The translations under genes were made by a program, and so were the position numbers. Of a stretch of DNA of 64,000 nt, positions 2,271-57,272 are shown in pieces. The DNA comes from Chitinophagales bacterium. Lineage in GTDB: Bacteria > Bacteroidota > Bacteroidia > Chitinophagales > UBA8649. The notes under the pieces are model-generated. The model saw only the letters and a program-made list of their open reading frames with translations. It ran no database searches and was not told the DNA's origin. The stretch lies in contig JASJJC010000008.1 of the NCBI GenBank assembly GCA_037624485.1, forward strand, positions 7,051 through 71,050, in the 5' to 3' direction. Numbering within the stretch: position 1 is the first letter of the stretch; every line of letters starts with the position of its first letter.

Positions 2271-3287
2271 TTATAGAATACAAGATAGTTCATAAAGAAT
2301 TCGTGCACCTACATTTGCATCCCATTCTTGATTACCTACTTCATTCAAATCACAACCTATGATTTGCTTACCGCTTTCCTTCAGTCGGCGAAAAAGCTCT
2401 ACCACCTCTGCATACTGCAATCCGCCCGGCACCGGTGTTCCTGTATTTGGACAAAGCTTTGGATCCAAACCATCAATATCAAATGAAACATAGACCTGTT
2501 CTGGCAAATCTTTTATAATACTGTCCCACTGCTCGGACACTGATACCCCTCTAAATCGTTCTTGATGCAATTTAACATCGAAGTAAGTTCGAATTCGTTT
2601 ATCTGCTTGAATAAGGTCTATCTCCTCTTTACAAATATCCCGCACGCCTACTTGAACCAAAGATGTTAGTTGAGTCATTTTTAAAGCATTAAACATTATG
2701 GACGCATGGGAAAATTCAAAACCTTCATAGGCTTGACGAAGATCTGCGTGCGCATCAATCTGAAGAATTCCAAATGAGTCATATTTTTGGGCTAAGGCTT
2801 GCATATAACCTAGCGGCGTGCTGTGGTCTCCCCCTAAAAGAATGACCTTTTTTCCCCTGTTTAACAAGCGCATAGCTTGTTCAAAGACCCATTTCCTAAG
2901 CGTATCACAAACCTGATTAATTTCAGTAATTTGCTCATTTAACTCCTCAATCGACTTACCCTTCTCTTGCAACAAAATAAGCTCATTAGCCTTTTGCACG
3001 TACTTAGAGTTGAGCTTATAGATTTCGTCTGAAACATCCAACATAAAAACACCCTGCTTCCATGCTTCAGGATAATTTAAATGATAAAGATCTAATTGTG
3101 TAGAGGCTTTTAAAATCTGCTGTGGTGCTTTCGAAGTCCCTCCGCCATAAGAAGCTGTGAGTTCCCACGGAACAGGTAAAACAATGATATCTGATTCTTC
3201 AAACCCAAACGGTAAACCAAACAACTTACCATTGGCTAAGCCTACACCCGACGGGTTATAATTCTTGATTTTCTCTTCCTTCGTCAT
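2271..3287 (-). CDS. Agmatinase/ureohydrolase family protein
   Basis: GGDHS, DAHADL, SFDIDGLDP and GTPVPGG motifs. Confidence 0.9.
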   Translation of the reverse strand: MTKEEKIKNYNPSGVGLANGKLFGLPFGFEESDIIVLPVPWELTASYGGGTSKAPQQILKASTQLDLYHLNYPEAWKQGVFMLDVSDEIYKLNSKYVQKANELILLQEKGKSIEELNEQITEINQVCDTLRKWVFEQAMRLLNRGKKVILLGGDHSTPLGYMQALAQKYDSFGILQIDAHADLRQAYEGFEFSHASIMFNALKMTQLTSLVQVGVRDICKEEIDLIQADKRIRTYFDVKLHQERFRGVSVSEQWDSIIKDLPEQVYVSFDIDGLDPKLCPNTGTPVPGGLQYAEVVELFRRLKESGKQIIGCDLNEVGNQEWDANVGARILYELSCIL

Positions 3288-4665
3288 GATTCTCCGATTT
3301 ATCGATTAAGGTCGCTATTGTCGCATCTCCAGTAACATTAACCGTGGTACGAACCATATCCAATAAACGATCTACTGGCAAAATGATGGCAATCCATGCA
3401 GGATTAAGGCCAACACTTGTTAATACAATCATTAACATCACCAAGCCTGCGCTAGGAACCGCAGCAGAGCCAATGGATGCTAAAGTAGCGGTAACAATAA
3501 TAGTTAACTGCTGTCCTAAGCTTAAATCAATCATATGGAACTGCGCTAAAAATATAGCAGCAACCGCTTGATATAGACTCGTGCCATCCATATTCACAGT
3601 AGCACCAATAGGCAAAACAAAACTACTCACCTTCTTACTCACTTTTAAGTTTTCCTCTACGACCTCAAGGGTCACCGGTAATGTAGCGGCACTAGAACTC
3701 GTGGAAAATGCCAAGGACTGCGCTGGGGCAATGTTTTTAAAGAATTCAAAATATTTAAAATCCTTTGTAAACAGCTTAAGAAGAATAGGGTAAAATATAA
3801 AAATCATAATCAGCAAGCCTAGTAAAACAACCAAGAAATAATAAATCAATTTCTCAAACACCCCTAACATGGCACCAAGGTCATCTCCTGCTATTTTGGT
3901 CAAGACACCCGCCATTAATGCAAACACAAAATATGGAGCTAAGAGCATGATAAAATCAATCATCTTTAAAAACACTTCATTGATAGCATTTATAAAGTCT
4001 TTTACAATGCCTGCTTGTTTTTTAGGGATATATAAGGAAGCTAAGCCAAAAAAGATAGCAAAAAATATAATCTGCAACATGGAATTTTTGATGAATGCAT
4101 CGAAGAGATTGGATGGAACAATATCCACCAAAGCCCTTAATGGTCCACCAGAAACCGTTTTTTCTTGAGTAGCTAACCTTTTACTTACTTCTTCCGGAAT
4201 CTCCTCACTAGCCATGAATTGCTTCACCTCTGCTACTAGCTCAGCATGCTCATCTAAACAGGAATAGCATTGACCATCCTTAATTTCAATTTCACTGGCA
4301 TTTGCCCATAACTCGTATTGAATTCTATTCGTCAGGTCGGCATTATCTCCTGGCTTGATTACATTTACCAATAATAAGCCTAAACTCACGGCAAAAACGG
4401 TAGAAATCAAATAAAGTCCTAATGTTTTACCACCCATTTTTCCGAGATGCTCAGGATTTCCGATACCGATGATACCTCCAATAACAGAAAATAGCACCAA
4501 AGGAATAGCGATAAGTTTTAAAGCATTTAAGAATATATCGCCAAATGGCTTAATCCAATCTAGGGTAAACTTAGTCCAACCAAAATATGCAGCGCATAAC
4601 GCCCAAATGATACCTAAAACCATTCCAATGATGATTTTCCAGTGAAGGGCTAATGACTTCTTCAT
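3256..4665 (-). CDS. Dicarboxylate/amino acid:cation symporter (DAACS, GltP-like)
   Basis: [20 protein letters not shown] and [16 protein letters not shown] motifs. Confidence 0.92.
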
Positions 4666-11375: not shown

Positions 11376-13106
11376 TTATTTAATGAATAGTTTTTGATTG
11401 GTGGTAGAAGCCTGCATTTCAAGAGAAAGAAAATAAACCCCTTCTTCCAAATGCTTGGTTTGAATTAAAAATTGATCAATATCAGCTTGAATCCATAGTT
11501 GACTATTGACAACTAGTTTACCCAAAGCATCAAAGATTTTCAGCGCTGCTGCACCTTTTTCACTCGAGCGAATGGTGAGTGTAGATTCATATAATGATGG
11601 GTTAGGTGCCAAGCTTATTGATAGATTAGAATCCTTAGCTTTTAAAATTGCACTAACGATGTCACTATATTCATATTCACCGTTAAAATCTATTTGTTTT
11701 AAGCGATAATAATATCGGATGTTTGGCAAAAAATTATAATCCTTGAAAGCGTATATATTTATATCACTGCTCGTTCCATTACCATCTAGCCAGGCAATAT
11801 TTTCGAAATTCTCGCCATCTGTGCTCCTTAGAATTTCAAAGCCTGAATTATTTAACTCTGTAGCCGTTGCCCATTCCACCATGATATGGTTATCATTGCC
11901 ATATGCTTCAAGTGACAATAATTCAACAGGAAGAGTTGAACTTAATGGGTCTGTGGAATGAAGTCTTAATGAGGATAAGCTTGTCTGGCCGCTGATTGAA
12001 TACCCTGTCGGGTCAAGTACGAATCCGGGCTGCTGGGGGAAATCAGTTGTCCCAATTATAGGATTTGAAGATAAATCTCCGCCTACAACACCTTCTTTTG
12101 CGAGATAACGCAATACCACATTCTGGCAGCCTAGCGGGCCGATATCCAGAGCATCTACATCAGCTGAAGGACTCGGCATTACGGTAACTGTATATTCAAC
12201 ACTTCCGCTTGGAGATGCTTGTATTGCCCACTGATGATTTTGATCTCGGTCCAAAACAATTTGATCTAAAACTCCATCTGGACCTCCTGTGCAATCCATC
12301 AAGGTACTTGACCCTGATGCATTTGGATTGGTTCCAACATCATCATAAACTTTATCAAAAACCAAAGGAACATCTCCATCCTCTAGATACACTAAAATAT
12401 CATAAGGACTTGAAGCATTATTTGAAAAGGTAAATTGAATCGGTTGGGTTCCAGCATCCAGCGAACTGGGTTGTATTCCTATAGGAAATAAATAGGTGTT
12501 ATTTCCATTTACCATCCACCTCAACTTACCCTCGATGTAATCATCTCCCAGGTTGGCTGAGGAAGAAGCGCCACTTATGGCTAATGGATCACTATTAAGC
12601 AAATACAACTCTTTTGAATATAAATCCCCATCATCAGAATGCGAGCTTATATCCGTACGAATGATTCCTCCGTCATTTTCAAAGCTAATACTGTTTTTTA
12701 CATTTAAATTACTAGCTAAATCAATTCGAGTAGTTGAAGCTTTATCTATCTTTACATTATATAAATTATTTAAGCTAGCTAAGCCATTTAAATCACCGCT
12801 TATGATCTGGTTTGACGCACCGGAAAACCGCTCAACACCCGTAGATTCATATTTGGCATTTGTTTCATCTGCAGTATTCGTAAAGTTTCCTGTCAACTCA
12901 ACAATACCGTCTATGTTTTGAAAAACGCCCTGATTGTTATTGATTTCTCCAGCTACAAATAAAGTGGGGTTTGTACCGTCATTGCCATCCACGTATACTT
13001 CAATGGTTGCAGAAAGATTATCTCCATCGACATAAAACTCATTTTGAGCTTTTAGATTTAGAGTAAAAACCAGAAAAACCAATGTAGTACAATAAAAGTT
13101 AGTCAT
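11376..13106 (-). CDS. T9SS type A sorting domain-containing protein
   Basis: Signal peptide, LPVEL...YYRLKQIDFNG domain, CTD (PNPS...IFDALGKLV...GVYFL...KLFIK). Confidence 0.87.
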   Translation of the reverse strand: MTNFYCTTLVFLVFTLNLKAQNEFYVDGDNLSATIEVYVDGNDGTNPTLFVAGEINNNQGVFQNIDGIVELTGNFTNTADETNAKYESTGVERFSGASNQIISGDLNGLASLNNLYNVKIDKASTTRIDLASNLNVKNSISFENDGGIIRTDISSHSDDGDLYSKELYLLNSDPLAISGASSSANLGDDYIEGKLRWMVNGNNTYLFPIGIQPSSLDAGTQPIQFTFSNNASSPYDILVYLEDGDVPLVFDKVYDDVGTNPNASGSSTLMDCTGGPDGVLDQIVLDRDQNHQWAIQASPSGSVEYTVTVMPSPSADVDALDIGPLGCQNVVLRYLAKEGVVGGDLSSNPIIGTTDFPQQPGFVLDPTGYSISGQTSLSSLRLHSTDPLSSTLPVELLSLEAYGNDNHIMVEWATATELNNSGFEILRSTDGENFENIAWLDGNGTSSDINIYAFKDYNFLPNIRYYYRLKQIDFNGEYEYSDIVSAILKAKDSNLSISLAPNPSLYESTLTIRSSEKGAAALKIFDALGKLVVNSQLWIQADIDQFLIQTKHLEEGVYFLSLEMQASTTNQKLFIK

Positions 13107-46644: not shown

Positions 46645-47604
46645 TTAAAACCATCTTTTCTTCATAAAAAACCAGCCCAAGACAAATGAAAACACCAAGG
46701 ATAGCGCAATAATGACGATAAACGGAATAAAACTATGCTCGTATCCTTCTTGCAGCGGTAACCGGATATTCATTCCATAAAAACTTGCCAATAAAGTGGG
46801 GACCATTAGCACAATAGTCACTGCCGTCAAACGCTGAACAACAATTCCTAAATTATTGGAAATGATTGAAGCAAAAGAATCCATTGTCCCATTTAAAATA
46901 TTGGTATAAATATCTGCCATTTCAATAGCCTGACCACTATCTACAACAACATCTTCTAAAAAATCCTCCTTATGCTCGTCTTCTCTGATTTTTAAAAAAT
47001 TGGTTCGTCGAAGCTTGTTCATCATTAAATCGTTACTCCTAAGATTGGTCACAAAATAGATTAAGCTTTTTTGCAAATTCAATAAGCGTTTTAAATCCTT
47101 ACTCCTTGATGAGCGGTAAATTTCACTTTCAAAAGAGTAACGCTTATTATTAATTTCGCGCAGATAGTACTGAAAGTAATACACATTGCGATTGAATAAT
47201 TGAAGTGTAAACAAGCTTTGATCTGCCGGGTCAAACCCTTTGATTTTATTCAAAAGAAAATCATCGATCACTCTGTTTTCATAGCTGCAAATCGTGATAA
47301 TATATTCGGGCTTGCTGACTATACCGATTGGAATAGTTAGGTAGAGCGCTTCATTGTCAATAAGATCATTATTTAAAATAGGTGTGTTGACCACAACTAA
47401 ATCCGTCTCCTCTTCCGACTCAAATCTACTTTGCTCGTCCCTATCTAAAGAATCCGTCAAGAAATCTAAAGGTAAATTATGCATTTGAGCGATTTCTTCT
47501 AGATTCTCTTTGGAAAATGGTGGATAAATATTTACCCAACAACCTTTTTCGAAATTCTGGATTTCAATTAGGTCATTTCCTGATTTCTTAAGTATTTTGA
47601 TCAT
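46645..47604 (-). CDS. CorA family Mg2+ transporter
   Basis: YGMN signature and two C-terminal TM helices. Confidence 0.9.
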   Translation of the reverse strand: MIKILKKSGNDLIEIQNFEKGCWVNIYPPFSKENLEEIAQMHNLPLDFLTDSLDRDEQSRFESEEETDLVVVNTPILNNDLIDNEALYLTIPIGIVSKPEYIITICSYENRVIDDFLLNKIKGFDPADQSLFTLQLFNRNVYYFQYYLREINNKRYSFESEIYRSSRSKDLKRLLNLQKSLIYFVTNLRSNDLMMNKLRRTNFLKIREDEHKEDFLEDVVVDSGQAIEMADIYTNILNGTMDSFASIISNNLGIVVQRLTAVTIVLMVPTLLASFYGMNIRLPLQEGYEHSFIPFIVIIALSLVFSFVLGWFFMKKRWF

Positions 47605-47614
47605 CAGTGAGCTT

Positions 47615-48130
47615 TTACTCTTGATTAAACAGTGCTTTGAAACTTTCCGCCTCCGTTGCTTGTATTCTTCCTGCCAAAATAAGTCTTATTTCTCTTCTTT
47701 TCAAGGCCCCTTCGAATTGATTTTTCTCCTCGGCAGTTTCAGGGGCGATAGGTATCGCTTTTTTCGGTCTTCCATTACTATCCAAAGCTACAAATGTATA
47801 GTAAGCTGTATTGCATTTGTATCGGTTTTGTGATGGTAGATTTTCTGCCCAAACCTCAATATAGGTTTCAATAGATGTATTAAAGACTCTTGTAACCTTG
47901 GCTTCAATGGTAACAACATCGCCTATTTTGATTGGGTTGTCAAAAGATACCTGATCTACAGAAACAGTAACCACTACCGCTTTTGCATGCTTCCCTGCTG
48001 CAATTGCAGAAGCAATATCCATCCAATGTAAGATCTTACCTCCTCTTAGATTATTTAAAGCGTTTGCGTCATTGGGCAAGACGATTTCTGTCATGATTGT
48101 TCTTGAGTAAGCTGGTGTACTTTGATCCAT
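47615..48130 (-). CDS. Acyl-CoA thioesterase (HotDog, YciA-like)
   Basis: VLPNDAN..NNL.GG..L.WMD and VVTVSVD motifs. Confidence 0.9.
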   Translation of the reverse strand: MDQSTPAYSRTIMTEIVLPNDANALNNLRGGKILHWMDIASAIAAGKHAKAVVVTVSVDQVSFDNPIKIGDVVTIEAKVTRVFNTSIETYIEVWAENLPSQNRYKCNTAYYTFVALDSNGRPKKAIPIAPETAEEKNQFEGALKRREIRLILAGRIQATEAESFKALFNQE

Positions 48131-48297
48131 ATCAACTTGAGTTATATAAATGAGTTGTAAAAATAGTATAATTTGCTTTACTATAAGATTCCTGCGCCAA
48201 GCTTTGGAGAACTAGCTAAAAAATTGATAGCGCTCTAATTTTTGTCCTTGGAATAAGATGCTTCTTACAAAGAATATCTACCTTTACACTTCTTATT

Positions 48298-48371
48298 GGC
48301 TCCGTAGTTCAATTGGATAGAATGTCAGATTTCGGCTCTGATGGTTGGGGGTTCGAATCCCTCCGGGGTCA
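48298..48371 (+). tRNA. tRNA-Arg(UCG)
   Basis: Acceptor GGCTCCG/CGGGGTC, D arm with TGGATAGA, anticodon arm TCAGA-TTTCGGC-TCTGA, T arm GGTTCGAATCC. Confidence 0.94.
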
Positions 48372-48375
48372 CTCT

Positions 48376-48415
48376 AGCGGAGAATTAGTTAAAATTAACT
48401 GGTTCTCCGCTTTTT
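48376..48415 (+). terminator. Intrinsic terminator after tRNA-Arg
   Basis: AGCGGAGAATTAGTT-AAAATT-AACTGGTTCTCCGCTTTTT. Confidence 0.82.
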
Positions 48416-48441
48416 ATTTTTCATATTACTTCTATTTTTCC

Positions 48442-48466
48442 CAAACACAAAAAACAAACACAAAAA
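48442..48466 (+). repeat. Tandem 12-bp direct repeat CAAACACAAAAA (possible integrase arm-type sites)
   Basis: Copies at 48442-48453 and 48455-48466, about 70 bp inside the left att. Confidence 0.55.
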
Positions 48467-48523
48467 CGACGTGGAATACCGTTAAACGCCTCTGCACTGC
48501 GAGGACTGGATTCATTAGCAAGT

Positions 48524-49774
48524 TTATTTAAAATAGTCGAGTAAAAATTCTTCTGAAAAATACGGATAGTTCAGTTGTTTAGTCAGTTTGGTGTATTGCT
48601 TTATGATTTGATCTTTTTTATTGGCGGTTATGGCCGTTCCAAATAAATAAACTTGATGAATAATGGTGATAAATTCCTCATAGCTATATGCACAGTGACT
48701 ATAATTAAAAAGACGAGCGTATTTTTTCTGTTCAGGATCTTTTTTACTGTGTTTAAAATAAAACATACACATTAAGTAAAAAGAGTTTAGATGGTGTTTT
48801 TGATAGTAGAGTTCAATGCTAGTATCCAGATGAATTTTCTCTATTAGATAATTCATGAGCATAAAATCTTTAGTTAATATAGCTGTGTAAAACAATTCGT
48901 AAGAATAATCGAGTATGAGAGATTTTTTTGAATGTACTGCGAAATAATTGTCTAAAATTTCAGTAGAATTATCTCTGTCATCAGCTATTAGTTCTAATGC
49001 CAATAATCGACTGCACAAAATTGGATTTAATTGCTTGGAGTAAATTGAATCACCACTGATTTTTTTTTTTGGCTTTTGATTTAAAAAATTCCTAAACGCA
49101 AGTATTGCAGAGTTGAATAGAGTAATTTCTTTATCAAGTTCATTACGTTTAATTATTTCTGTTTGTTCTCCATAGTACCCATTCAAACTAGAATAGTCCA
49201 CAAAGGTTAAATACACACACTCAATATAATTAACATTACGAAGCAGTAGGGAATTGGTTGTAGGTTTTTTTCGAAGCAAAAAACCGATGGAGTTGCCCAA
49301 TTTTAATGCTTCAGAATACGTAAAGCTGTTGAATTTGAGCGCGTCTAATTTAAAGATACTATCCATTAATGGATAGTTTTTATCATGCAATAATTCTCTT
49401 ACTAGGAAGATAATAAAATCGATAAAATGTTCAGATGTTTTTTTGGCTTTAATAACCAAATTTATGATTGCATAATCATCATCTTTAGCAACCGCTTTAT
49501 AGATCGTTTGATACAAATCAATATTGTCTTTATTTGGATAGTTTAAGATGAAATGTTGGTAGTTTTTGTAGCCAACAAATTGAGATAATATATTTAGTGT
49601 GTTTTTGTTTGGTTTTGTACTTGGAGATAAACCATAAAATCGTTTGATTGTGCTGTAGCTGATATCTTTATCCAATATTTCTGTAATAGCATTAGAAATT
49701 AGCTCACAATCTCCTCTAGTTCTTACTGGTCTTGTAATTTTATCTTCAATTAAATTCTTCAGAGCGTCAATCAT
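48524..49774 (-). CDS. Putative transcriptional regulator: N-terminal HTH-like domain + helical C-terminal domain
   Basis: ISYSTIKRFYG...P...TLNILSQFVGY..Y..F resembles a Bacteroidota XRE-like HTH; divergent from the islet operon. Confidence 0.62.
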   Translation of the reverse strand: MIDALKNLIEDKITRPVRTRGDCELISNAITEILDKDISYSTIKRFYGLSPSTKPNKNTLNILSQFVGYKNYQHFILNYPNKDNIDLYQTIYKAVAKDDDYAIINLVIKAKKTSEHFIDFIIFLVRELLHDKNYPLMDSIFKLDALKFNSFTYSEALKLGNSIGFLLRKKPTTNSLLLRNVNYIECVYLTFVDYSSLNGYYGEQTEIIKRNELDKEITLFNSAILAFRNFLNQKPKKKISGDSIYSKQLNPILCSRLLALELIADDRDNSTEILDNYFAVHSKKSLILDYSYELFYTAILTKDFMLMNYLIEKIHLDTSIELYYQKHHLNSFYLMCMFYFKHSKKDPEQKKYARLFNYSHCAYSYEEFITIIHQVYLFGTAITANKKDQIIKQYTKLTKQLNYPYFSEEFLLDYFK

Positions 49775-49784
49775 ACGTTGTCAA

Positions 49785-49833
49785 TTATGAATCATTTATG
49801 AATCAAAAATACGTAAACTAAAGTGTATATTTG
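49785..49833. promoter_or_regulatory. Divergent promoter pair with tandem-repeat operator
   Basis: TTATGAATCA twice (49785-49794, 49796-49805); -7 box TATTTTTG on the minus strand (49804-49811) and TATATTTG on the plus strand (49826-49833). Confidence 0.65.
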
Positions 49834-49840
49834 ATTTTTT

Positions 49841-50350
49841 ATGCTCAATTATTATAAGAACATGTCAAAATATATTAAACCTAGATTACGAGAGAAGTTA
49901 TCTAGTGCATCTGAACAATTAGTTTCGGATTTATTCTTATCAATACTAGGGCAGATTAGAGTTTTTGAAGGCAAGAGTAATGGACCTGGAGCTATTTATG
50001 GAATTTCCCAATGTTTAAGAATGCTACACGAACACTTTGAGGCAGGATATACCCAAGAAGCAAAAAAATATATTACTGATTTGGGCTTTCATTCAGAACC
50101 AAGAACAATAAGAGAAATCTATAATCTAAGTAGTAAGATAGACAAGAGCGAGCGAAAACTCTATGTTGAGCATACTGATGGTGGCATTAAAAAACTAGCG
50201 ACTGATTTATTGAGCCTAGATGAAGAATTAAAAGGCAATGAGCAAGATGTCGAAATGGTAAGCACTTTCATTAAAAACAATACCTACTTCATCACAAAAC
50301 ACAAAGACAAGAATAAAGATATAGATGAGAATTTCTCAATAAAAAATTAA
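49841..50350 (+). CDS. Hypothetical protein (possible degenerate His-Me/HNH-like motif)
   Basis: First gene of the operon; LYVEH...FITKHKD.N. Start may be 49862. Confidence 0.6.
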   Translation: MLNYYKNMSKYIKPRLREKLSSASEQLVSDLFLSILGQIRVFEGKSNGPGAIYGISQCLRMLHEHFEAGYTQEAKKYITDLGFHSEPRTIREIYNLSSKIDKSERKLYVEHTDGGIKKLATDLLSLDEELKGNEQDVEMVSTFIKNNTYFITKHKDKNKDIDENFSIKN

Positions 50351-50368
50351 TAAAAAATAAAAAATAAA

Positions 50369-51460
50369 ATGGCAAGAGATTATACAAAATACACAGCAGA
50401 AGGTTTAGGAGAAAACCTTAACAAGAGAAAATTAGTTTTTACAATCGTAAAAGACTGGGCAGAGAAAAATAATCCGTCCTTAGAAGAAATACAAACCGCA
50501 TTTCCAGATGAAGTGCAAGGTGGTAAAGGCTTTATTGTAAAAGAAAGTGAAGTAAAAGACGCTAAACGTTTTAATATGAAAGAACCATTGAGTATTAAAA
50601 ATGGCGTGCAAATAGTAATGTCTAATCAATGGGGAGAGAATATTGCAGATTTTATTACTGGAGCTGAAAAGTTGGGCTACACTATCCTTAAAAACACTTC
50701 AAACAATCCTCAAGATCAACAAAATTCAGTGGATGTTAACACCGACACATCATTAGAAGAAATAGATCAAATTATTGAAGAAATTATTCACGGTGATTTA
50801 ACAACACAAGAAAACTTTAGAAAAAACACAATCAACTTTATTAATGAAAATAATCAATACTACTGGTTTTTATTAGCCATAAATAACGCTTTACAAGCTT
50901 GGGAAAATAAAATAGATGATGAAGGATTAGATTTAAGTGTTGATGGATTGCATCTTAAAGGTGGAGAATTGAACTTTAACCCTTATGAAGAGTATAGACT
51001 ATTTTATAATTGGAGAGAAGAAAAATTTGGTATTGAAGAAGATGATGATGAACCAACTTCTTTCTTTAAGGCATTAATAGATTCATTCTATGACTTTGAT
51101 TCGCACAGCGATTTGATATCGCTAGGTGAAAATGATTTAAACAAGTTTATAAATATGTCTAAAACCGTTCTGTTATGCACAGTTTGTAAAGAATGTGAAA
51201 ATGATACAGATACGGACGATCTCACTAATCTTTTATTGGGAATAAATTTTGAAGACTTACCAGAAATTAATGATAAACTAAACGGAGGTGATATTTCGAA
51301 TGAAATATTAGAGGATGTTCTGGAAACCCTCGATATTTCTGTTGAAGACTATAAGAATGAAGAAGAATTATGGAAAGATTTATACCTTCTTAATTATGAA
51401 GATGTAGCTCGAGAGATTTTAGATAATGATGTGTTTGATAAAGACTATATACGTTCGTAA
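50369..51460 (+). CDS. Two-domain hypothetical protein: N-terminal RDYTKY...SNQWG domain + very acidic C-terminal domain
   Basis: Compact ~105-aa N-domain, N/Q-rich linker, D/E-rich remainder. Confidence 0.7.
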   Translation: MARDYTKYTAEGLGENLNKRKLVFTIVKDWAEKNNPSLEEIQTAFPDEVQGGKGFIVKESEVKDAKRFNMKEPLSIKNGVQIVMSNQWGENIADFITGAEKLGYTILKNTSNNPQDQQNSVDVNTDTSLEEIDQIIEEIIHGDLTTQENFRKNTINFINENNQYYWFLLAINNALQAWENKIDDEGLDLSVDGLHLKGGELNFNPYEEYRLFYNWREEKFGIEEDDDEPTSFFKALIDSFYDFDSHSDLISLGENDLNKFINMSKTVLLCTVCKECENDTDTDDLTNLLLGINFEDLPEINDKLNGGDISNEILEDVLETLDISVEDYKNEEELWKDLYLLNYEDVAREILDNDVFDKDYIRS

Positions 51461-51475
51461 CAACTACAATAATTT

Positions 51476-51919
51476 ATGAAGATTCTTAACATTGATTTAG
51501 ATGGTGTTGTTGCAGATTTTGTTTCTGCAATGAATGCTCATCCCTTAAGAAACGAACCACCTTTTGATAAAGATCCGGATACTATTCCGGGTCTTTTCAG
51601 GAATTTGAAGCCCATAGAATCTGCGATTAATTCAGTAGAAAAATTACTTCATTCAGAGAAATATGAAGTGTATTTCCTTAGCACAGCACCCTGGAATAAC
51701 CCTTCTGCATGGACAGATAAGCGTTTGTGGTTAGCAGAACAATTTGGTGATAAAATAAACAGAAGGCTTATCTTGACCCACCGTAAAGATCTGGTTAAAG
51801 GTGATATTTTAATTGACGACAGACCAAATAATGGAGCAAAGGATTTTGATGGGGAGTGGATTCATTTTGCTTCTGAAAAGTTCCCTAACTGGGATTCGGT
51901 ATTAAATTATTTATTATGA
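51476..51919 (+). CDS. 5'(3')-deoxyribonucleotidase, NT5C-type HAD phosphatase
   Basis: DLDGVVADF (motif I), LSTAPW (II), DKRLWL (III), ILIDDR (IV). Confidence 0.88.
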   Translation: MKILNIDLDGVVADFVSAMNAHPLRNEPPFDKDPDTIPGLFRNLKPIESAINSVEKLLHSEKYEVYFLSTAPWNNPSAWTDKRLWLAEQFGDKINRRLILTHRKDLVKGDILIDDRPNNGAKDFDGEWIHFASEKFPNWDSVLNYLL

Positions 51920-51988
51920 AATGACTAACAATAATTTAGAAACCAACTGAAGCTCTATATCTCGAAAATTTCTCCTCATATTTTATAA

Positions 51989-53956
51989 ATGAAAGCACTA
52001 TCAAAATCACGATTTAAACAAGGACTAGAATGTCCTAATAAACTCTACTTTTCAAATAGTCCAAATGTTTACCATAATGTTAAAAACGAAGATCCGTTTT
52101 TGCAAGCACTCGCTAGTGGTGGTTTTCAAATAGAAGAGTATGCACGCTTACAATATCCGGATGGGATTTTAGTAGACGCACCGTATGAGGGTAATTATTA
52201 TCAAGATTTAGCAGATCAAACTACTGAACTCTTAAAGCAAGAAAAGATAATTATTTATGAAGCTGCTTTTTATGTGAATGATCTATTTATCAGAACGGAT
52301 ATTCTGGTAAAAAAAGGTAAAAACATTGAACTTATTGAAGTAAAAGCCAAATCCATTGACCCAAATAATGATCATAATTTTATGGGGAAAAAAGGTGGTT
52401 TGGTAGGTGCCTGGAAGCCTTATTTATTTGATTTGGCTTTTCAAAGTTATGTAGCCCAACTTTGCTTACCCACTTATAAAATCAATCCTTACTTATGTCT
52501 AGTTAATAAAACGAAAGCAGCTACTGTAGAAGGCTTAAATCAACAATTTAGAGTTAAACAAAATTCTGATAAACGAACTGGTGTAGATGTTTTGGTAGAT
52601 AATGTAAGACAGCTAGGAGATAATCTGCTGCATGTGGAAGATTTGACGGAGGTGGTTGATAAAATACATAACAACGACTTTAAATATTACGATAATCTAA
52701 ATTTTAATGAAGCCATAAAGTTATTGCGCAAAATTAGAATTAAGGATTATTATCCCAATTGGCCAACGCAGTTTGGAGCTTGTAAGAAGTGTGAATTTAA
52801 GAAAGACGAAAGTGAAAAAGGTCAATTAAAGCAATCTGGTTTTGAATATTGTTTGAAAACACAACATCAATGGACTGATTTAGATTTTGCTAAACCTAAT
52901 ATTTTTAATGTTTGGGATTTAAAAGATCCAAAAATAATGGAGCAGGGGCTACTTTTTAAATCTCAACTGACCCCAGAGCATATCAAATACAAAGAGACTG
53001 CCGGAAAACTGCATCGTACCGAACGACAGTGGCTGCAAATTGAAAAAGAACGAGATGGTGATTTTACAGAGTTTATTGATAAAGCAGGTTTAAGGGCTGA
53101 AATGGACACTTGGTTATTCCCGCTTCACTTCATAGATTTTGAAACATCAACAGTGCCGCTACCCTTCCATTTAGGACGTAAGCCTTATGAGCAAATAGCC
53201 TTTCAGTTTTCACATCATATTTATTATGAAGATGGCCGCATTGAACATGCTAATGAATATATCAATACCAATCCTGGAGAATTCCCGAATTTCAAATTTA
53301 TTGAGCATTTAAAAAAGGCCTTATCGAACGATGACGGCACAATTTTTAGATATTCAACGCATGAAAATACGATCCTTAATTCGATTAGAGACCAATTGAA
53401 ATCTAGTCAATACCAAAAAAAAGAGTCTCTTATTGCATTCATAGAATCGATTTGTCATTCAAAAAGTGAACATCCTGACCCTTGGTTACAACCTAAAAGA
53501 GATATGGTTGACCTATGTGATATGGTAAAAAAGTACTATTACAATCCACATACCAAAGGGTCTAATTCTATTAAAAAAGTACTCCCTGCGGTATTAAAAT
53601 CTAGCACGATCGTAAAAGAAAAGTATGGTCAACCTATTGGTGAAATTGCCGTTTCAAGTCAAAATTTTGATACAACTCATATTTGGTTAAAAAAAGAAGA
53701 TGGTGAAATTATCAGTCCTTACAAAATGTTGCCAGAGGTATTTAAAGGTATAAGTTCTGCTGAAATTGAAGCAAATGTATCTGATATTGAGAATGTTGAA
53801 GATGGTGGTGCAGCTTTAACAGCTTATGGCAAGATTCAATATACAGATATGTCTGATAAGGAGCGAAAAGAAATTGCAGATGCACTTAAGCGTTATTGTG
53901 AGTTAGATACTTTAGCTATGGTAATGATTTATGAGCATTTAAAATCAATTATTTAA
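51989..53956 (+). CDS. DUF2779-type protein: Cas4/RecB-like PD-(D/E)XK domain + RNase H-like DEDD domain
   Basis: LSKS...ECPNKLY; TDILV...IEVK; DLAFQ.Y; CKKCEF...YC; FIDFET; PYEQIAFQFS.H; YCELD. Confidence 0.82.
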   Translation: MKALSKSRFKQGLECPNKLYFSNSPNVYHNVKNEDPFLQALASGGFQIEEYARLQYPDGILVDAPYEGNYYQDLADQTTELLKQEKIIIYEAAFYVNDLFIRTDILVKKGKNIELIEVKAKSIDPNNDHNFMGKKGGLVGAWKPYLFDLAFQSYVAQLCLPTYKINPYLCLVNKTKAATVEGLNQQFRVKQNSDKRTGVDVLVDNVRQLGDNLLHVEDLTEVVDKIHNNDFKYYDNLNFNEAIKLLRKIRIKDYYPNWPTQFGACKKCEFKKDESEKGQLKQSGFEYCLKTQHQWTDLDFAKPNIFNVWDLKDPKIMEQGLLFKSQLTPEHIKYKETAGKLHRTERQWLQIEKERDGDFTEFIDKAGLRAEMDTWLFPLHFIDFETSTVPLPFHLGRKPYEQIAFQFSHHIYYEDGRIEHANEYINTNPGEFPNFKFIEHLKKALSNDDGTIFRYSTHENTILNSIRDQLKSSQYQKKESLIAFIESICHSKSEHPDPWLQPKRDMVDLCDMVKKYYYNPHTKGSNSIKKVLPAVLKSSTIVKEKYGQPIGEIAVSSQNFDTTHIWLKKEDGEIISPYKMLPEVFKGISSAEIEANVSDIENVEDGGAALTAYGKIQYTDMSDKERKEIADALKRYCELDTLAMVMIYEHLKSII

Positions 53957-53966
53957 TTGACTTTCT

Positions 53967-54311
53967 ATGCAAAACCCTAACTTTTTAACGGAACTGATGC
54001 AAATCTGGCTCGCACAATATACTAGAAATCAGGAAAACTCACTTACAACTATGGGTTTGTTTCATTGGGAATTCCGCCCCAACAAACATAAACCTGAAAA
54101 GCTCAGAAGAATTCCAAGAATAGACATGTCTATGGAAATAAAAAATTCGAGTTTTAAGCATGCGGTTTATTTTTTAGAAATAGATGCTGAAACGCTGCAC
54201 GTATTCGAATCTTCAGGTATTGCCTTAGGAGGATTAAATATTGCACATGAATATGCTTTAAAAGAAGAGGTGTTTATTAAAGGAAAAGTTTTAATGAAAT
54301 CAATTCGTTAA
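53967..54311 (+). CDS. Hypothetical protein (last gene of the islet operon)
   Basis: 114-aa ORF 10 bp after the nuclease gene, same strand. Confidence 0.55.
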   Translation: MQNPNFLTELMQIWLAQYTRNQENSLTTMGLFHWEFRPNKHKPEKLRRIPRIDMSMEIKNSSFKHAVYFLEIDAETLHVFESSGIALGGLNIAHEYALKEEVFIKGKVLMKSIR

Positions 54312-54430
54312 CTATTAAAATTGATGTAAACAAAAGGACTAAAGCTTGCATTGTATCGTGATCATTTCAACCCTACATATTTCACTTACCAGAGAAGATC
54401 CTTCAAATCCTCTAAAAAGCTTGAACTCTT

Positions 54431-54445
54431 TCCTATCGGGGTCAC
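54431..54445 (+). repeat. Displaced tRNA-Arg 3' fragment (attR-like)
   Basis: TCCTATCGGGGTCAC versus tRNA TCCCTCCGGGGTCAC (48358-48372): 12/15, last 9 identical. Confidence 0.62.
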
Positions 54446-54450
54446 AAGGA

Positions 54451-54480
54451 AAGCTCAGTGCGAAAGCACTGGGCTTTTTT
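54451..54480 (+). terminator. Intrinsic terminator following the tRNA fragment
   Basis: AAGCTCAGTGC-GAAA-GCACTGGGCTTTTTT. Confidence 0.85.
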
Positions 54481-54580
54481 AGTGCAAAAAACCGTTAAGC
54501 ATATTTAAGCTGTAATTAATCATTTTAAAAGGTATACTATGAAGATACATTTAGTTAAATTTTAGGTATATCTTTAATTT

Positions 54581-54976
54581 ATGAAAAAAGTATTTCTATC
54601 AATCTCTATAATAACCCTATTTTTTACCTCATGCGAGAAGGCCGTCAATCTCCCAGCGCCATATTATGATATGGAAGGAAAATGGACTTACGGTGCTAAC
54701 AATTCAAACACCATGTACCTCTATGAAGATGGATTACGCTATACTTACTACTGTGGTATTGATAATTGTGATTCTCTTTACAATACCTATACAGCAGGGG
54801 ATTCAAATCATATACCCGAAGTTCTTAATTATACATTTGAAAATGATACACTCCATGTAGATTTGAATTTTGGAAATGAATTGGTAACTCTAGTCACATT
54901 TGTATGCGAAGGTGGTCAAGCAAACTTTGAAATGAATGGACAAACATTTTACAGATTAAATTCTGATTGCGAATAA
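54581..54976 (+). CDS. Hypothetical lipoprotein (lipocalin-like beta fold possible)
   Basis: Lipobox FFTSC followed by EK; EGKW motif; four further Cys. Confidence 0.75.
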   Translation: MKKVFLSISIITLFFTSCEKAVNLPAPYYDMEGKWTYGANNSNTMYLYEDGLRYTYYCGIDNCDSLYNTYTAGDSNHIPEVLNYTFENDTLHVDLNFGNELVTLVTFVCEGGQANFEMNGQTFYRLNSDCE

Positions 54977-55025
54977 AATGAAAATTATATTCGGGATAAG
55001 TGAAACTAACTATCAGATTTTATCA

Positions 55026-55060
55026 ATAAAAAACGCCCAGCATAACTGGGCGTTTTTTAT
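55026..55060. terminator. Bidirectional intrinsic terminator
   Basis: ATAAAAAACGCCCAG-CATAA-CTGGGCGTTTTTTAT. Confidence 0.88.
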
Positions 55061-55076
55061 TGCCGAATAAGTAAAT

Positions 55077-57272
55077 CTATCTTAAGAATAACAATTCTCG
55101 ATACTTCGGTATAGGCCATAATTTGTCATCCACTATCAACTCCAACTTATCACAATTGTATCGTATCGTATCAAAATAAGGCTTTACGTCATCACAATAG
55201 GCTTTGGCCATCTCGGAAGCTCCTACCAACTTGTTCGCTTTCTTTCTTGCTTCTATCATTTCAGCCACATCATTTTCGATTACCTGAATATGGCTAGAGA
55301 TGCGCTCTATCAAATTTAGTTGAGATTGGTAGCTCCCCTTTTTAAGTCCTAGATCTTTCAATCCACGTGCATTAGCAATCAAGTTGTTTTGATAGGTAAT
55401 TGCAACTGGTAAAATTTCATTTAATGCCATCTCACCAAGAGTTCTGGCTTCAATTTGAAGTTTCATGGTGTAAGCTTCGTAAAATATTTCACTTCTTGCT
55501 TCTAGCTCAACATCACTGAAAATATTGTTTTTGATAAATACATCTTTAGCTTTTTTCGTATTCAAAAAGTCTAAAGCATACGCAGTTGTTTTTACATTAC
55601 TTAATCCTCTTTTTTCTGCTTCTTGTGCCCACTCATCACTATAATTATCGCCTTCAAACAAGATATTTTTTGAAGCGTTGATATATCGTCGAATTACGCG
55701 TAAAATTGCACCTTCTTTCTTCTCTCCACCTTTTATCAATTTATCTACTTCCGTTTTAAAGTCAGTCAACTGATTAGCCATGATGGTATTCAATACTGTC
55801 ATCGGCCATGCACAATTTGCAGTACTGCCTACTGCTCGAACCTCAAACTTATTTCCAGTAAAAGCAAATGGAGAAGTCCTGTTTCTATCCGTATTATCCA
55901 ACAAAACATCTGGAATCTTATTGTGAATATCTAACTTAAGGCTTCCGTTTTTATCCTCATCATAACGACCATGGTCTACTCGTTTTGCCACTTCCTCTAA
56001 TACCGAAGTTAAGTGAGAGCCAATAAATACTGAAATAATAGCAGGAGGGGCCTCATTTGCACCCAGTCGGTGATCGTTGCTTGCTGTAGCGATTGCTGCG
56101 CGTAATAAATCAGAATACTCATTGACCGCTTTAATCACATTGACAAAGAAGGTTAAGAACATTAAATTGTTCTTCGGGGTCTTGCCTGGCGATAACAAAT
56201 TTTTACCGGTATCTGTACTTAAACTCCAATTGTTATGCTTGCCTGATCCATTGATGCCTTGGAATGGTTTTTCATGCATCAAAACAGCTAACTTATGTCG
56301 CTTACCCACTCTCTCCAGCACATCCATAATCAGTTGATTATGATCAACTGCTACATTCATTTCCTCATACATTGGTGCAAGCTCAAACTGACTTGGAGCC
56401 ACCTCATTATGGCGAGTTCTTACAGGAATACCCAACTTATGCGCTTCTCTTTCAAAATCCAACATAAAGTCATACACTCGCTCAGGAATAGCTCCAAAAT
56501 AATGATCATCCAATTGTTGCCCTCTAGCAGGAGCATGACCAATTAATGTTCTTCCGCTTAACACCAAATCGGGCCTTGCATAAAATAAAGCTTCATCAAC
56601 CACAAAATATTCTTGTTCCCATCCCAAGGTTGAATGCACCTTGGTGACATGCCTGTCAAATAAATTAACTACCGGCAATGCGGCTTTTTCTAGAAAGTGG
56701 CAAGACTTTAACAATGGAGCTTTATGGTCTAGACTTTCCCCAGTATATGAAATAAAAATTGTTGGGATACATAATGTAATCCCATCACCAATCTCCATGA
56801 TAAACGCAGGAGAGGTAGGATCCCATGCTGTATATCCTCTTGCTTCAAAAGTTTGACGAATTCCACCATTTGGAAAAGAAGAGGCATCAGGCTCTTGTTG
56901 AATCAATTCAGACCCCGTAAATGTTTCCATTCCTTCCCCATCCATTGAGGGGACAAAAAACGTATCGTGCTTCTCTGCTGTGCTTCCTGTTAAAGGTTGA
57001 AACCAATGCGTATATGATTTAGCTCCTTTCTCCATTGCCCAAGACTTCATAGCTGCAGCAACTTGATCAGCTGTATTTCTATCAATCTTTTTTCCCGCGC
57101 TAATTGCATGCTGAATTCCATAAAATGCATCTTCAGAAAGATATTTCTTCATTGTCGATTCCGTAAAAACATTCTCCGCATAATATTCGGATATCCTCTT
57201 ATTCGGTAGCTTAACATTTATCTTCTTACGCTGAGTAGCAGTTTTTACACTTGATTTTCTAGAATTATCCAT
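55077..57272 (-). CDS. glnA: Glutamine synthetase type III
   Basis: HWFQPLTG.TAEKHD, EPDASSFP, HNEVAP.QFE, NGSGKHNNWS and DRNRTSPFAFTGNKFE motifs; 731 aa. Confidence 0.95.
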   Translation of the reverse strand: MDNSRKSSVKTATQRKKINVKLPNKRISEYYAENVFTESTMKKYLSEDAFYGIQHAISAGKKIDRNTADQVAAAMKSWAMEKGAKSYTHWFQPLTGSTAEKHDTFFVPSMDGEGMETFTGSELIQQEPDASSFPNGGIRQTFEARGYTAWDPTSPAFIMEIGDGITLCIPTIFISYTGESLDHKAPLLKSCHFLEKAALPVVNLFDRHVTKVHSTLGWEQEYFVVDEALFYARPDLVLSGRTLIGHAPARGQQLDDHYFGAIPERVYDFMLDFEREAHKLGIPVRTRHNEVAPSQFELAPMYEEMNVAVDHNQLIMDVLERVGKRHKLAVLMHEKPFQGINGSGKHNNWSLSTDTGKNLLSPGKTPKNNLMFLTFFVNVIKAVNEYSDLLRAAIATASNDHRLGANEAPPAIISVFIGSHLTSVLEEVAKRVDHGRYDEDKNGSLKLDIHNKIPDVLLDNTDRNRTSPFAFTGNKFEVRAVGSTANCAWPMTVLNTIMANQLTDFKTEVDKLIKGGEKKEGAILRVIRRYINASKNILFEGDNYSDEWAQEAEKRGLSNVKTTAYALDFLNTKKAKDVFIKNNIFSDVELEARSEIFYEAYTMKLQIEARTLGEMALNEILPVAITYQNNLIANARGLKDLGLKKGSYQSQLNLIERISSHIQVIENDVAEMIEARKKANKLVGASEMAKAYCDDVKPYFDTIRYNCDKLELIVDDKLWPIPKYRELLFLR

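Follow-up and report, generated by a model that had tools for sequence, protein, structure and literature searches.

In a 64,000-nt stretch of DNA from a Chitinophagales bacterium (the window, whose positions serve as coordinates throughout and which lies on contig C8 of genome G000), a dual nuclease of the DUF2779 family is encoded in an islet behind a tRNA-Arg gene, and our comparisons with other genomes (G-numbers) and with loci from other genomes or contigs (L-numbers) show that its gene, that of an NT5C-type phosphatase and that of a small protein form a conserved trio in marine Flavobacteriia. The islet itself is an integrase-less, horizontally mobile cassette at the 3′ end of tRNA-Arg(TCG). 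We consider accessory destruction of foreign or linear DNA, directed against phages or mobile elements, the best single explanation of these findings, with a probability of roughly 0.45; it draws on the mobility of the islet, the patchy distribution, the conserved coupling of nuclease and phosphatase, reader-type accessory genes and the company that the nuclease family keeps elsewhere. The trio would thus plausibly be a novel module of defence type with a known nuclease family at its base. The islet and the three genes are as follows.

48373–54436, no strand: inserted islet, 6.06 kb, AT-rich (comparison with relatives)
51476–51919, + strand: NT5C-type HAD phosphatase, 147 aa, 5′(3′)-deoxyribonucleotidase family, short form with reduced cap
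51989–53956, + strand: DUF2779 dual nuclease, 655 aa (PF11074, fold matches)
53967–54311, + strand: E114, small basic alpha+beta protein, 114 aa, no known family (AlphaFold2 (AF2) model)

Linkage of these genes was scored in two sets, 80 genome loci centred on the nuclease and 80 metagenome loci centred on the small gene, the latter possibly including repeated samplings of one population. NT5C lies no more than 1.3 kb upstream of the nuclease in 13 of the 80 genome loci, and the small gene occupies the +1 position in 12; the clade with at least 63% nuclease identity accounts for all 12 small-gene loci and for 12 of the 13 NT5C loci, the remaining one, L070, standing at 51%. Among the metagenome loci, DUF2779 abuts the E114 gene on its upstream side in 55 of the 72 that have room, NT5C precedes the nuclease in 37 of 42, and linkage of the trio spans 45–100% protein identity. 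In several of the genome loci the NT5C stop overlaps the nuclease start. A preliminary description of this DNA had treated five co-oriented genes as one system, which holds for NT5C, the nuclease and the 114-aa gene but not for the other islet genes: those for B/SNQWG proteins (represented here by B363) are present in 24 of 34 metagenome loci, U416 in 12 of 34 and A169 in 4 of 34, while U416 is linked to the operon in 9 and A169 in 2 of the 80 genome loci. Since three genes stay linked while the others vary, the fixed unit is the trio and the rest is exchangeable. In L132, L143, L160, L179, L180 and L182 inserted genes of 513–865 aa separate the nuclease from the 114-aa gene, and a 365-aa gene (cluster c15) shifts its place, separating NT5C from the nuclease in L013 but following the nuclease in L010.

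The central member of the trio is indeed a double nuclease, as the preliminary description had proposed. Its PF11074 (DUF2779) match (7e-26, 91.4 bits against a cut-off of 23.3) covers aa 380–527, and a comparison of 22 homologues, the most distant at 50% identity, shows no variation at C15, D104, E117, K119, Q152, C265, C268, C288, D383, E385, Y636 or D640. The N-terminal domain is a Cas4/RecB-like PD-(D/E)XK nuclease with a D...ExK motif formed by D104, E117 and K119 (plus Q152), and its four Cas4-type cysteines, C15 at the N terminus and C265, C268 and C288 after the nuclease core, could by prediction hold an Fe–S cluster. The C-terminal domain (aa 374–655) has a DEDD-type 3′–5′ exonuclease fold containing the invariant D383, E385, Y636 and D640, with D508 and E459 as candidates for the Exo II acidic residue. 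Although a profile of the nuclease sequence found nothing in the PDB, Foldseek placed the AF2 model (pLDDT 84.7) closest to Cas4 (8d3l_I, E 1.5e-3, probability 1.00), followed by RecE, MGME1 and Exo5; the best rows range from E 1.5e-3 to 8e-3, the Cas4 entries from 0.85 to 1.00 in probability. Residues 374–655 align with family-B polymerase exonuclease domains at Z 12–13.9 (VIA), the top alignment (Z 13.9) covering 185 residues at an rmsd of 3.2, and the C terminus matches NCBIfam UU173 weakly.

This two-domain architecture is already in print, with no function assigned in the portions of the two sources available to us (PMC3985635, PMC13621843), where DUF2779 is classed as RNase H-like family F.17 (Majorek et al. 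2014, PMC3985635) and MMSYN1_0389 of JCVI-syn3.0 is named as a member (PMC13621843). The islet protein shares with F.17, MMSYN1_0389 and UU173 the combination of a Cas4/DUF83-like PD-(D/E)XK domain and a DEDD exonuclease. It differs from them in that its clade keeps all four Cas4-type cysteines, compared with two in the Mycoplasma protein according to the available part of PMC13621843, and in being carried on a mobile islet and tied to NT5C and a small gene, a pairing unmentioned in the same portions of PMC3985635 and PMC13621843. The system had been put forward as undescribed: the trio does appear to be so, but its nuclease family, as these partially available sources make plain, is not. Our literature search, which covered publications apart from their supplementary files, found none on the trio or on a defence role of DUF2779.

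Cas4, AddB, RecB, RecE, MGME1 and EXO5 have the fold and the D...ExK motif of the islet N-domain, whose cysteine pattern is that of Cas4 and AddB. Like Cas4 and the RecBCD/AddAB-type DNA destroyers, the islet nuclease would be expected to act on DNA ends; unlike them, it is accompanied by no helicase, no Cas1/Cas2 and no CRISPR context in the islet, and has a proofreading-type exonuclease fused to it instead. The family is very large (more than 7000 matches were returned for the 655-aa protein), yet patchy: of the 16 genomes in the taxonomic family 5 carry it, as do 3 of the 10 that are of high quality. On viral contigs the nuclease is nearly absent (3 loci found) and the SNQWG domain was not found at all, which suggests that neither is a phage gene.

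The protein encoded directly ahead of the nuclease belongs, as had been claimed, to the NT5C (deoxyribonucleotidase) family of HAD phosphatases, matching PF06941 at 3.7e-17 and phrog_420 at 6e-18, and HAD motifs I (DxD), II (S/T), III (K) and IV (DD) are all present. In an alignment of 10 sequences D7, D9, K104, D114 and D115 never vary, and at least 90% of the sequences keep S69/T70. At 147 aa it is shorter than the solved NT5C enzymes (180–208 aa), and because its alignment to one of these (PDB 2jao, 3e-11) begins at residue 37, we conclude that about 30 cap residues are missing; such a reduced cap may open the active site to polymers. The mitochondrial-type and cytosolic enzymes mdN/cdN and the phage NT5C-like proteins (phrog_420, phrog_2643) have the same motifs and family, whereas the islet form has the shorter cap and a gene placed directly ahead of a nuclease gene. 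Viral contigs often carry the short form, and 102 full-length relatives at 40–51% identity were confirmed there; many of the viral relatives (L189–L268) lie on contigs of 100–370 kb. As far as the available portions of the literature go, we found no publication joining NT5C to an anti-phage defence system, those on deoxyribonucleotidases and phage defence dealing with other matters.

The third member, E114, is modelled by AF2 as one helix packed on a six-stranded sheet (pLDDT 89.7), with R47 invariant and R48 nearly so. Its fold matches in the PDB are weak (NTF2/cystatin-like, Z at most 5.7), and BFVD held none. Two candidate identities were rejected: a relationship to WYL (hhalign probability 0.5%), and PilZ (Atlas 0.78), for which the second Arg of RxxxR varies, DxSxxG is not conserved and no PilZ protein is among the fold matches. 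A predicted complex of the nuclease with E114 scored 0.00, which weighs neither way. In L140, L142 and L167 (for example L167 4593–11101) the E114 gene directly precedes that of a protein of about 1565 aa, without any DUF2779 gene, and U416 lies divergently upstream of this pair in L140 and L167. Neither the 1565-aa partner nor the genes inserted between nuclease and small gene gave a significant sequence match in the PDB, the sole row being an RNA helicase (E 0.0031, 19 bits) for a 541-aa insert.

Among the exchangeable genes is that of the SNQWG protein.

50369–51460, + strand: B363, 363 aa, conserved N-terminal SNQWG domain (aa 1–115) and variable, very acidic C-terminal region

The tail of B363 (aa 116–363, 50714–51460) holds 63 D/E against 17 K/R and has a pI of 4.05; SNQWG paralogues of one array have tails that differ completely. 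The SNQWG domain is present in 1687 representative clusters and in tandem arrays of up to 5 genes (L009). Fusions were counted in the 124 of the best 150 matches that have at least 150 aa and a sequence on file: PDDEXK_4 occurs in 5, PDDEXK_3 in 1, AAA_5 in 3 and TerB in 2, with no known domain otherwise. The domain forms the C terminus of the PDDEXK_4 nucleases and lies N-terminal to the AAA_5 (McrB-class) ATPases (P0352, P0357, P0366, P0323, P0368, P0376), and in L002, L003 and L005 a PDDEXK_4-like gene stands just upstream of a lone SNQWG gene, as if a fusion had been split. In the AAA_5 proteins SNQWG takes the place of the DNA reader of McrBC-type (type IV) systems. Such McrB-like architecture is confined to distant carriers (AAA_5 in 3, PDDEXK in 6 of 124), whereas B363 has an acidic tail and, with no Pfam domain, neither ATPase nor nuclease. 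SNQWG is therefore best described as a candidate DNA-binding or reader domain, a role that the nuclease and AAA_5 fusions fit without showing it; the DNA reader of the preliminary description gains this indirect support, but DNA reading itself is still inferred. Searches for a known relative gave nothing that counts: the best PDB rows of the profile were insignificant (a Ku70 SAP-region row at E 0.78), and the Atlas leads ScoMcrA_N (0.80) and SeqA (0.76) both fell below the level used.

The position and borders of the islet are defined by comparison with relatives, and three further features mark its ends.

48298–48372, + strand: tRNA-Arg, anticodon TCG (ARAGORN)
48356–48372, + strand: left attachment repeat, the last 17 nt of tRNA-Arg, AATCCCTCCGGGGTCAC
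54429–54445, + strand: degenerate right copy of the tRNA 3′ end, TTTCCTATCGGGGTCAC, 12/17 (alignment)

Regions were compared around the neighbouring thioesterase gene, which 15 of the 16 genomes in the taxonomic family yielded. In G003, from the same genus, the order is thioesterase, tRNA-Arg, lipoprotein gene and glutamine synthetase (GS), and the islet is absent; homology to the window ends at 48372 and resumes at 54437, where G003, about 190 bp behind its tRNA, repeats the 17 nt of the tRNA end without a mismatch. Homology to G007 and G008 also ends exactly at 48372, with GS about 500 bp after tRNA-Arg in G007. Conversely, the whole islet recurs in a different genome (L001, 96.6% nucleotide identity over 6087 bp), behind a tRNA-Arg 84% identical to that of the window, between flanks that do not align and with repeats of the tRNA end at both islet ends. 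In the window versus L109, the host GS gene has a synonymous divergence (dS) of 1.42, while the islet genes except the nuclease show a dS of at most 0.035. The islet has the hallmarks of a tRNA-integrated island in its 3′ insertion, flanking repeats and absence in relatives, though not an integrase of its own: none of the six islet proteins has a Pfam integrase match, family scans of these proteins gave no transfer, replication or packaging genes, and the three tyrosine recombinase matches above the Pfam cut-off in the genome are all on contigs other than C8. Together, the absence in G003, the L001 copy, the dS contrast and the missing integrase identify it as a cassette that targets a tRNA, is mobilised in trans and has recently passed between lineages, so that the tRNA-anchored islet of the preliminary description is upheld.

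Both of the tRNA-Arg 3′ repeats that had been named as its bounds exist as well, but the right one is degenerate: it matches 12 of the last 17 tRNA bases, a level reached about 110 times per genome by chance, and its status therefore rests on the genome comparison, in which it aligns to the perfect 17-nt repeat of G003 and to the third repeat of L001. A 175-bp non-coding piece with copies of the tRNA-Arg 3′ end at its borders lies between the tRNA and the next repeat in L098 (G003) at about 11470–11640 and in L001 at 4212–4386; in L001 it precedes the islet, and it is absent from the window. Given its presence in two genomes and absence here, the site holds tandem cassettes which come and go independently.

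Exchange also takes place gene by gene. In 200-bp steps the window and L109 are 97.5–100% identical across the islet except in the nuclease open reading frame (ORF; 51989–53956), where the L109 allele has 78–92% nucleotide identity with sharp edges at the gene borders, a protein identity of 85.5% and a dN/dS of 0.135; L112 shows a mosaic pattern unlike that of L109. The swap is an allele exchange by recombination under purifying selection, and positive selection on the nuclease was rejected, since a dN/dS of 0.10–0.14 indicates none overall. Allele exchange of this kind is typical of flexible, contested loci and is not proof of defence. The islet thus offers a clean natural example of an integrase-less cassette that moves at one tRNA site with gene-by-gene allele exchange.

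The wider DUF2779 family keeps company with defence genes. Recurrent neighbours in the 80 genome loci include type IIG restriction–modification (R-M) enzymes (5), DRT3a/b (3), Septu (4), IetA-like AAA proteins (6), HsdR (4), the E1-type protein of ubiquitin-like systems (7, with ubiquitin-like E1/E2 sets among them), STAND proteins (2) and WYL proteins (22). Models of Menshen, TmtA, Hhe/PDC-S37, GajB-like, HEC-06 or Mokosh (E at most 1e-8) picked up 7 of the 9 large singleton neighbours, whereas none of 10 large control proteins (nine from the window, one from a relative) was hit by any model, so that at least 30 of the 80 loci hold a recognised defence component. WYL-WCX regulators, a class that includes damage-responsive regulators, flank DUF2779 in the 22 loci mentioned, 10 times at +1. 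The DUF2779-WYL pairs that end R-M, DRT3 and other defence operons in other Bacteroidota have the same nuclease family as the islet, and in both the nuclease is the last or next-to-last gene of a co-oriented variable cluster; the trio clade differs in having the 114-aa protein, which is not WYL-related, at +1 and NT5C at −1. An enrichment of tRNA genes around DUF2779 was considered and dropped, as tRNA or tmRNA genes in the flanks of 20 of the 80 loci are not clearly above expectation.

We hypothesize that the dual nuclease would work from DNA ends of either polarity, breaking the DNA down to mononucleotides, and that the phosphatase would turn the released deoxynucleoside monophosphates (dNMPs) into nucleosides, blocking their re-use, or alternatively clean blocked ends, while SNQWG proteins and the small protein may target or restrain the nuclease. 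Nucleotide-depletion defences such as dCTP deaminase and dGTPase starve phage of DNA precursors; they act on dNTPs and stand alone, whereas the islet couples a predicted dNMP phosphatase to a nuclease. A more elaborate version of the defence reading, which we regard as speculative and improbable, makes the islet a modification-sensing restriction module with built-in clean-up, a small-protein gate and arms-race exchange of readers and nuclease. Exchangeable SNQWG proteins would recognise unusual (modified) DNA of phages and pass it on to the dual nuclease; NT5C, itself of phage type, would destroy the released non-canonical dNMPs, denying them to phage recycling and sparing the host their incorporation and hence self-restriction; the small alpha+beta protein would gate the nuclease; and nuclease allele swaps and reader arrays might stem from an arms race in which phages deploy inhibitors and DNA modifications.

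Several findings weigh against a defence role for the trio. The defence-island context stems from relatives with at most 57% identity, and a BLAST search with 20 reference defence proteins gave no homologue in 99 trio-clade loci (797 kb); the proximity to known defence genes proposed at the outset is thus real for distant DUF2779 relatives but was not found in the trio clade. PADLOC-DB 2.0.0 returned no system model for seven proteins, as the preliminary description had expected, the only row being a weak one to HamC (E 0.0068, 15 bits). The E114 gene occurs without the nuclease, beside the 1565-aa protein, so that E114 may have large partners other than the nuclease; the short NT5C, being common in phage contigs, may serve nucleotide metabolism rather than defence. 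In addition, the nuclease alleles are under purifying selection (dN/dS 0.10–0.14), the 22 loci with WYL neighbours fit a DNA-damage circuit equally well, and the Mycoplasma homologue is described as quasi-essential in the available text of PMC13621843, which fits housekeeping DNA repair.

The last three of these observations favour the alternative that survives best, namely that the trio is an accessory of DNA damage repair in which the nuclease would resect damaged ends as an AddAB/RecBCD-like helper, the phosphatase would sanitise the dNMP pool or heal ends, and the module would ride on islets only because it is dispensable. A transposon mutant of the M. bovis homologue among growth-defective clones (PMC7373297, of which part was available) points the same way. 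Nonetheless, G000 already has an AddAB-type PDDEXK_1 protein, no WYL gene was found in the 99 loci of the trio clade, and the patchy distribution (5 of 16 genomes), recent horizontal transfer and known defence systems as neighbours speak against it; we consider repair unlikely, though a serious contender.

Somewhat less likely still, in our estimate, is a variant of the destruction reading in which the 147-aa HAD protein would be a DNA-end phosphatase rather than a dNMP sink and would unblock 3′-phosphate ends for the DEDD exonuclease, by analogy with the HAD 3′-phosphatase domain of T4 polynucleotide kinase. A phrog_415 'polynucleotide kinase' match (1e-4, aa 1–106), translational coupling to the nuclease in several loci and the short cap (147 versus 180–208 aa), which may admit polymers to the active site, are consistent with it, yet the matches to NT5C are far stronger, both in PF06941 (3.7e-17) and among the deoxyribonucleotidases of the PDB (3e-11).

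We give still less credence to the idea that the module serves the islet or another mobile element, by excluding competitors, processing its own DNA in transfer or countering host nucleases, for example with the acidic tail of the SNQWG protein as a DNA mimic. The islet is mobile without an integrase and so depends on other elements; the tail of B363 is strongly acidic (63 D/E, 17 K/R, pI 4.05), the composition is mosaic and modular, and the NT5C form is shared with phages. Against this stand the near-absence of the nuclease from viral contigs, where the B domain was not found either, the islet's lack of transfer, replication and packaging genes, and the retention of the trio in many different contexts. 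Finally, that a variable islet merely carries unrelated genes next to one another is hardly credible and, for the trio, largely refuted: A169, SNQWG genes and U416 do come and go and other genes are inserted between nuclease and small gene in six loci, but the members of the trio remain neighbours (37 of 42 loci for NT5C, 55 of 72 for the small gene) at 45–100% identity, with short or overlapping junctions.

Should the trio restrict phages or plasmids, as the defence reading holds, DUF2779 would gain its first assigned role, the design would be that of a nuclease coupled to removal of its own products, and the abundant, streamlined marine Flavobacteriia would acquire a defence candidate in loci for which the BLAST check revealed no known system.

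The remaining features concern the layout of the islet and its operon.

48376–48421, + strand: hairpin and T-run with a 16-pair stem, at the left islet end, right behind the tRNA
48524–49774, − strand: U416, 416 aa, no known family, divergent (ORF listing)
49826–49833, + strand: presumed −7 promoter element, TATATTTG (TAnnTTTG scan)
49841–50350, + strand: A169, 169 aa, small protein, no family match (ORF listing)
54456–54480, + strand: hairpin CAGTGC-GAAA-GCACTG, then GGC and TTTTTT (read from the sequence)

The five + strand ORFs (49841–50350, 50369–51460, 51476–51919, 51989–53956 and 53967–54311) are separated by 18, 15, 69 and 10 bp, exactly as the preliminary description had it, and because the divergent ORF 48524–49774 (416 aa), which points away upstream of this row, belongs to the islet, the unit comprises six genes. 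The AT-rich segment was also correctly recognised, the GC content being 0.28–0.34 over 48500–55000 compared with 0.36–0.41 in the flanks. The claim of a single upstream promoter agrees with the one + strand copy of TAnnTTTG in 48373–54600, at 49826–49833 and 8 nt before the ATG at 49841, compared with about 4 expected in the islet from base composition; we take this consensus to be the Bacteroidota-type −7 element.

U416 and A169 have no match in Pfam, PADLOC, NCBIfam or PHROG, and a U416 profile found none in the PDB. From its position and an N-terminal stretch that by eye resembles a helix-turn-helix, U416 is a putative regulator; a full-length paralogue (26% identity) lies on the 4-kb contig C25 of G000 at 2483–3763, unaccompanied by operon genes. 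The upstream ATG of A169, the least conserved of the islet genes, is missing from L001, which makes 49862 the probable start. Public metatranscriptome runs X15 and X16 (one study) contain 0.44 and 0.37, respectively, of the words sampled from 47600–55200, not assigned to genes or to RNA.

As for termination, the downstream terminator that had been proposed does exist as a hairpin with a T-run at 54456–54480, reported by the terminator scan in the − strand reading only, but it belongs to the host flank rather than to the islet and is kept in the same-genus G003. It probably ends the operon transcript and probably served the tRNA as terminator before the insertion displaced it. The tRNA transcript now probably ends at the hairpin at 48376–48421, whose sequence recurs after the second repeat in L001; the islet thus supplies a strong terminator of its own immediately downstream of the restored tRNA 3′ end.

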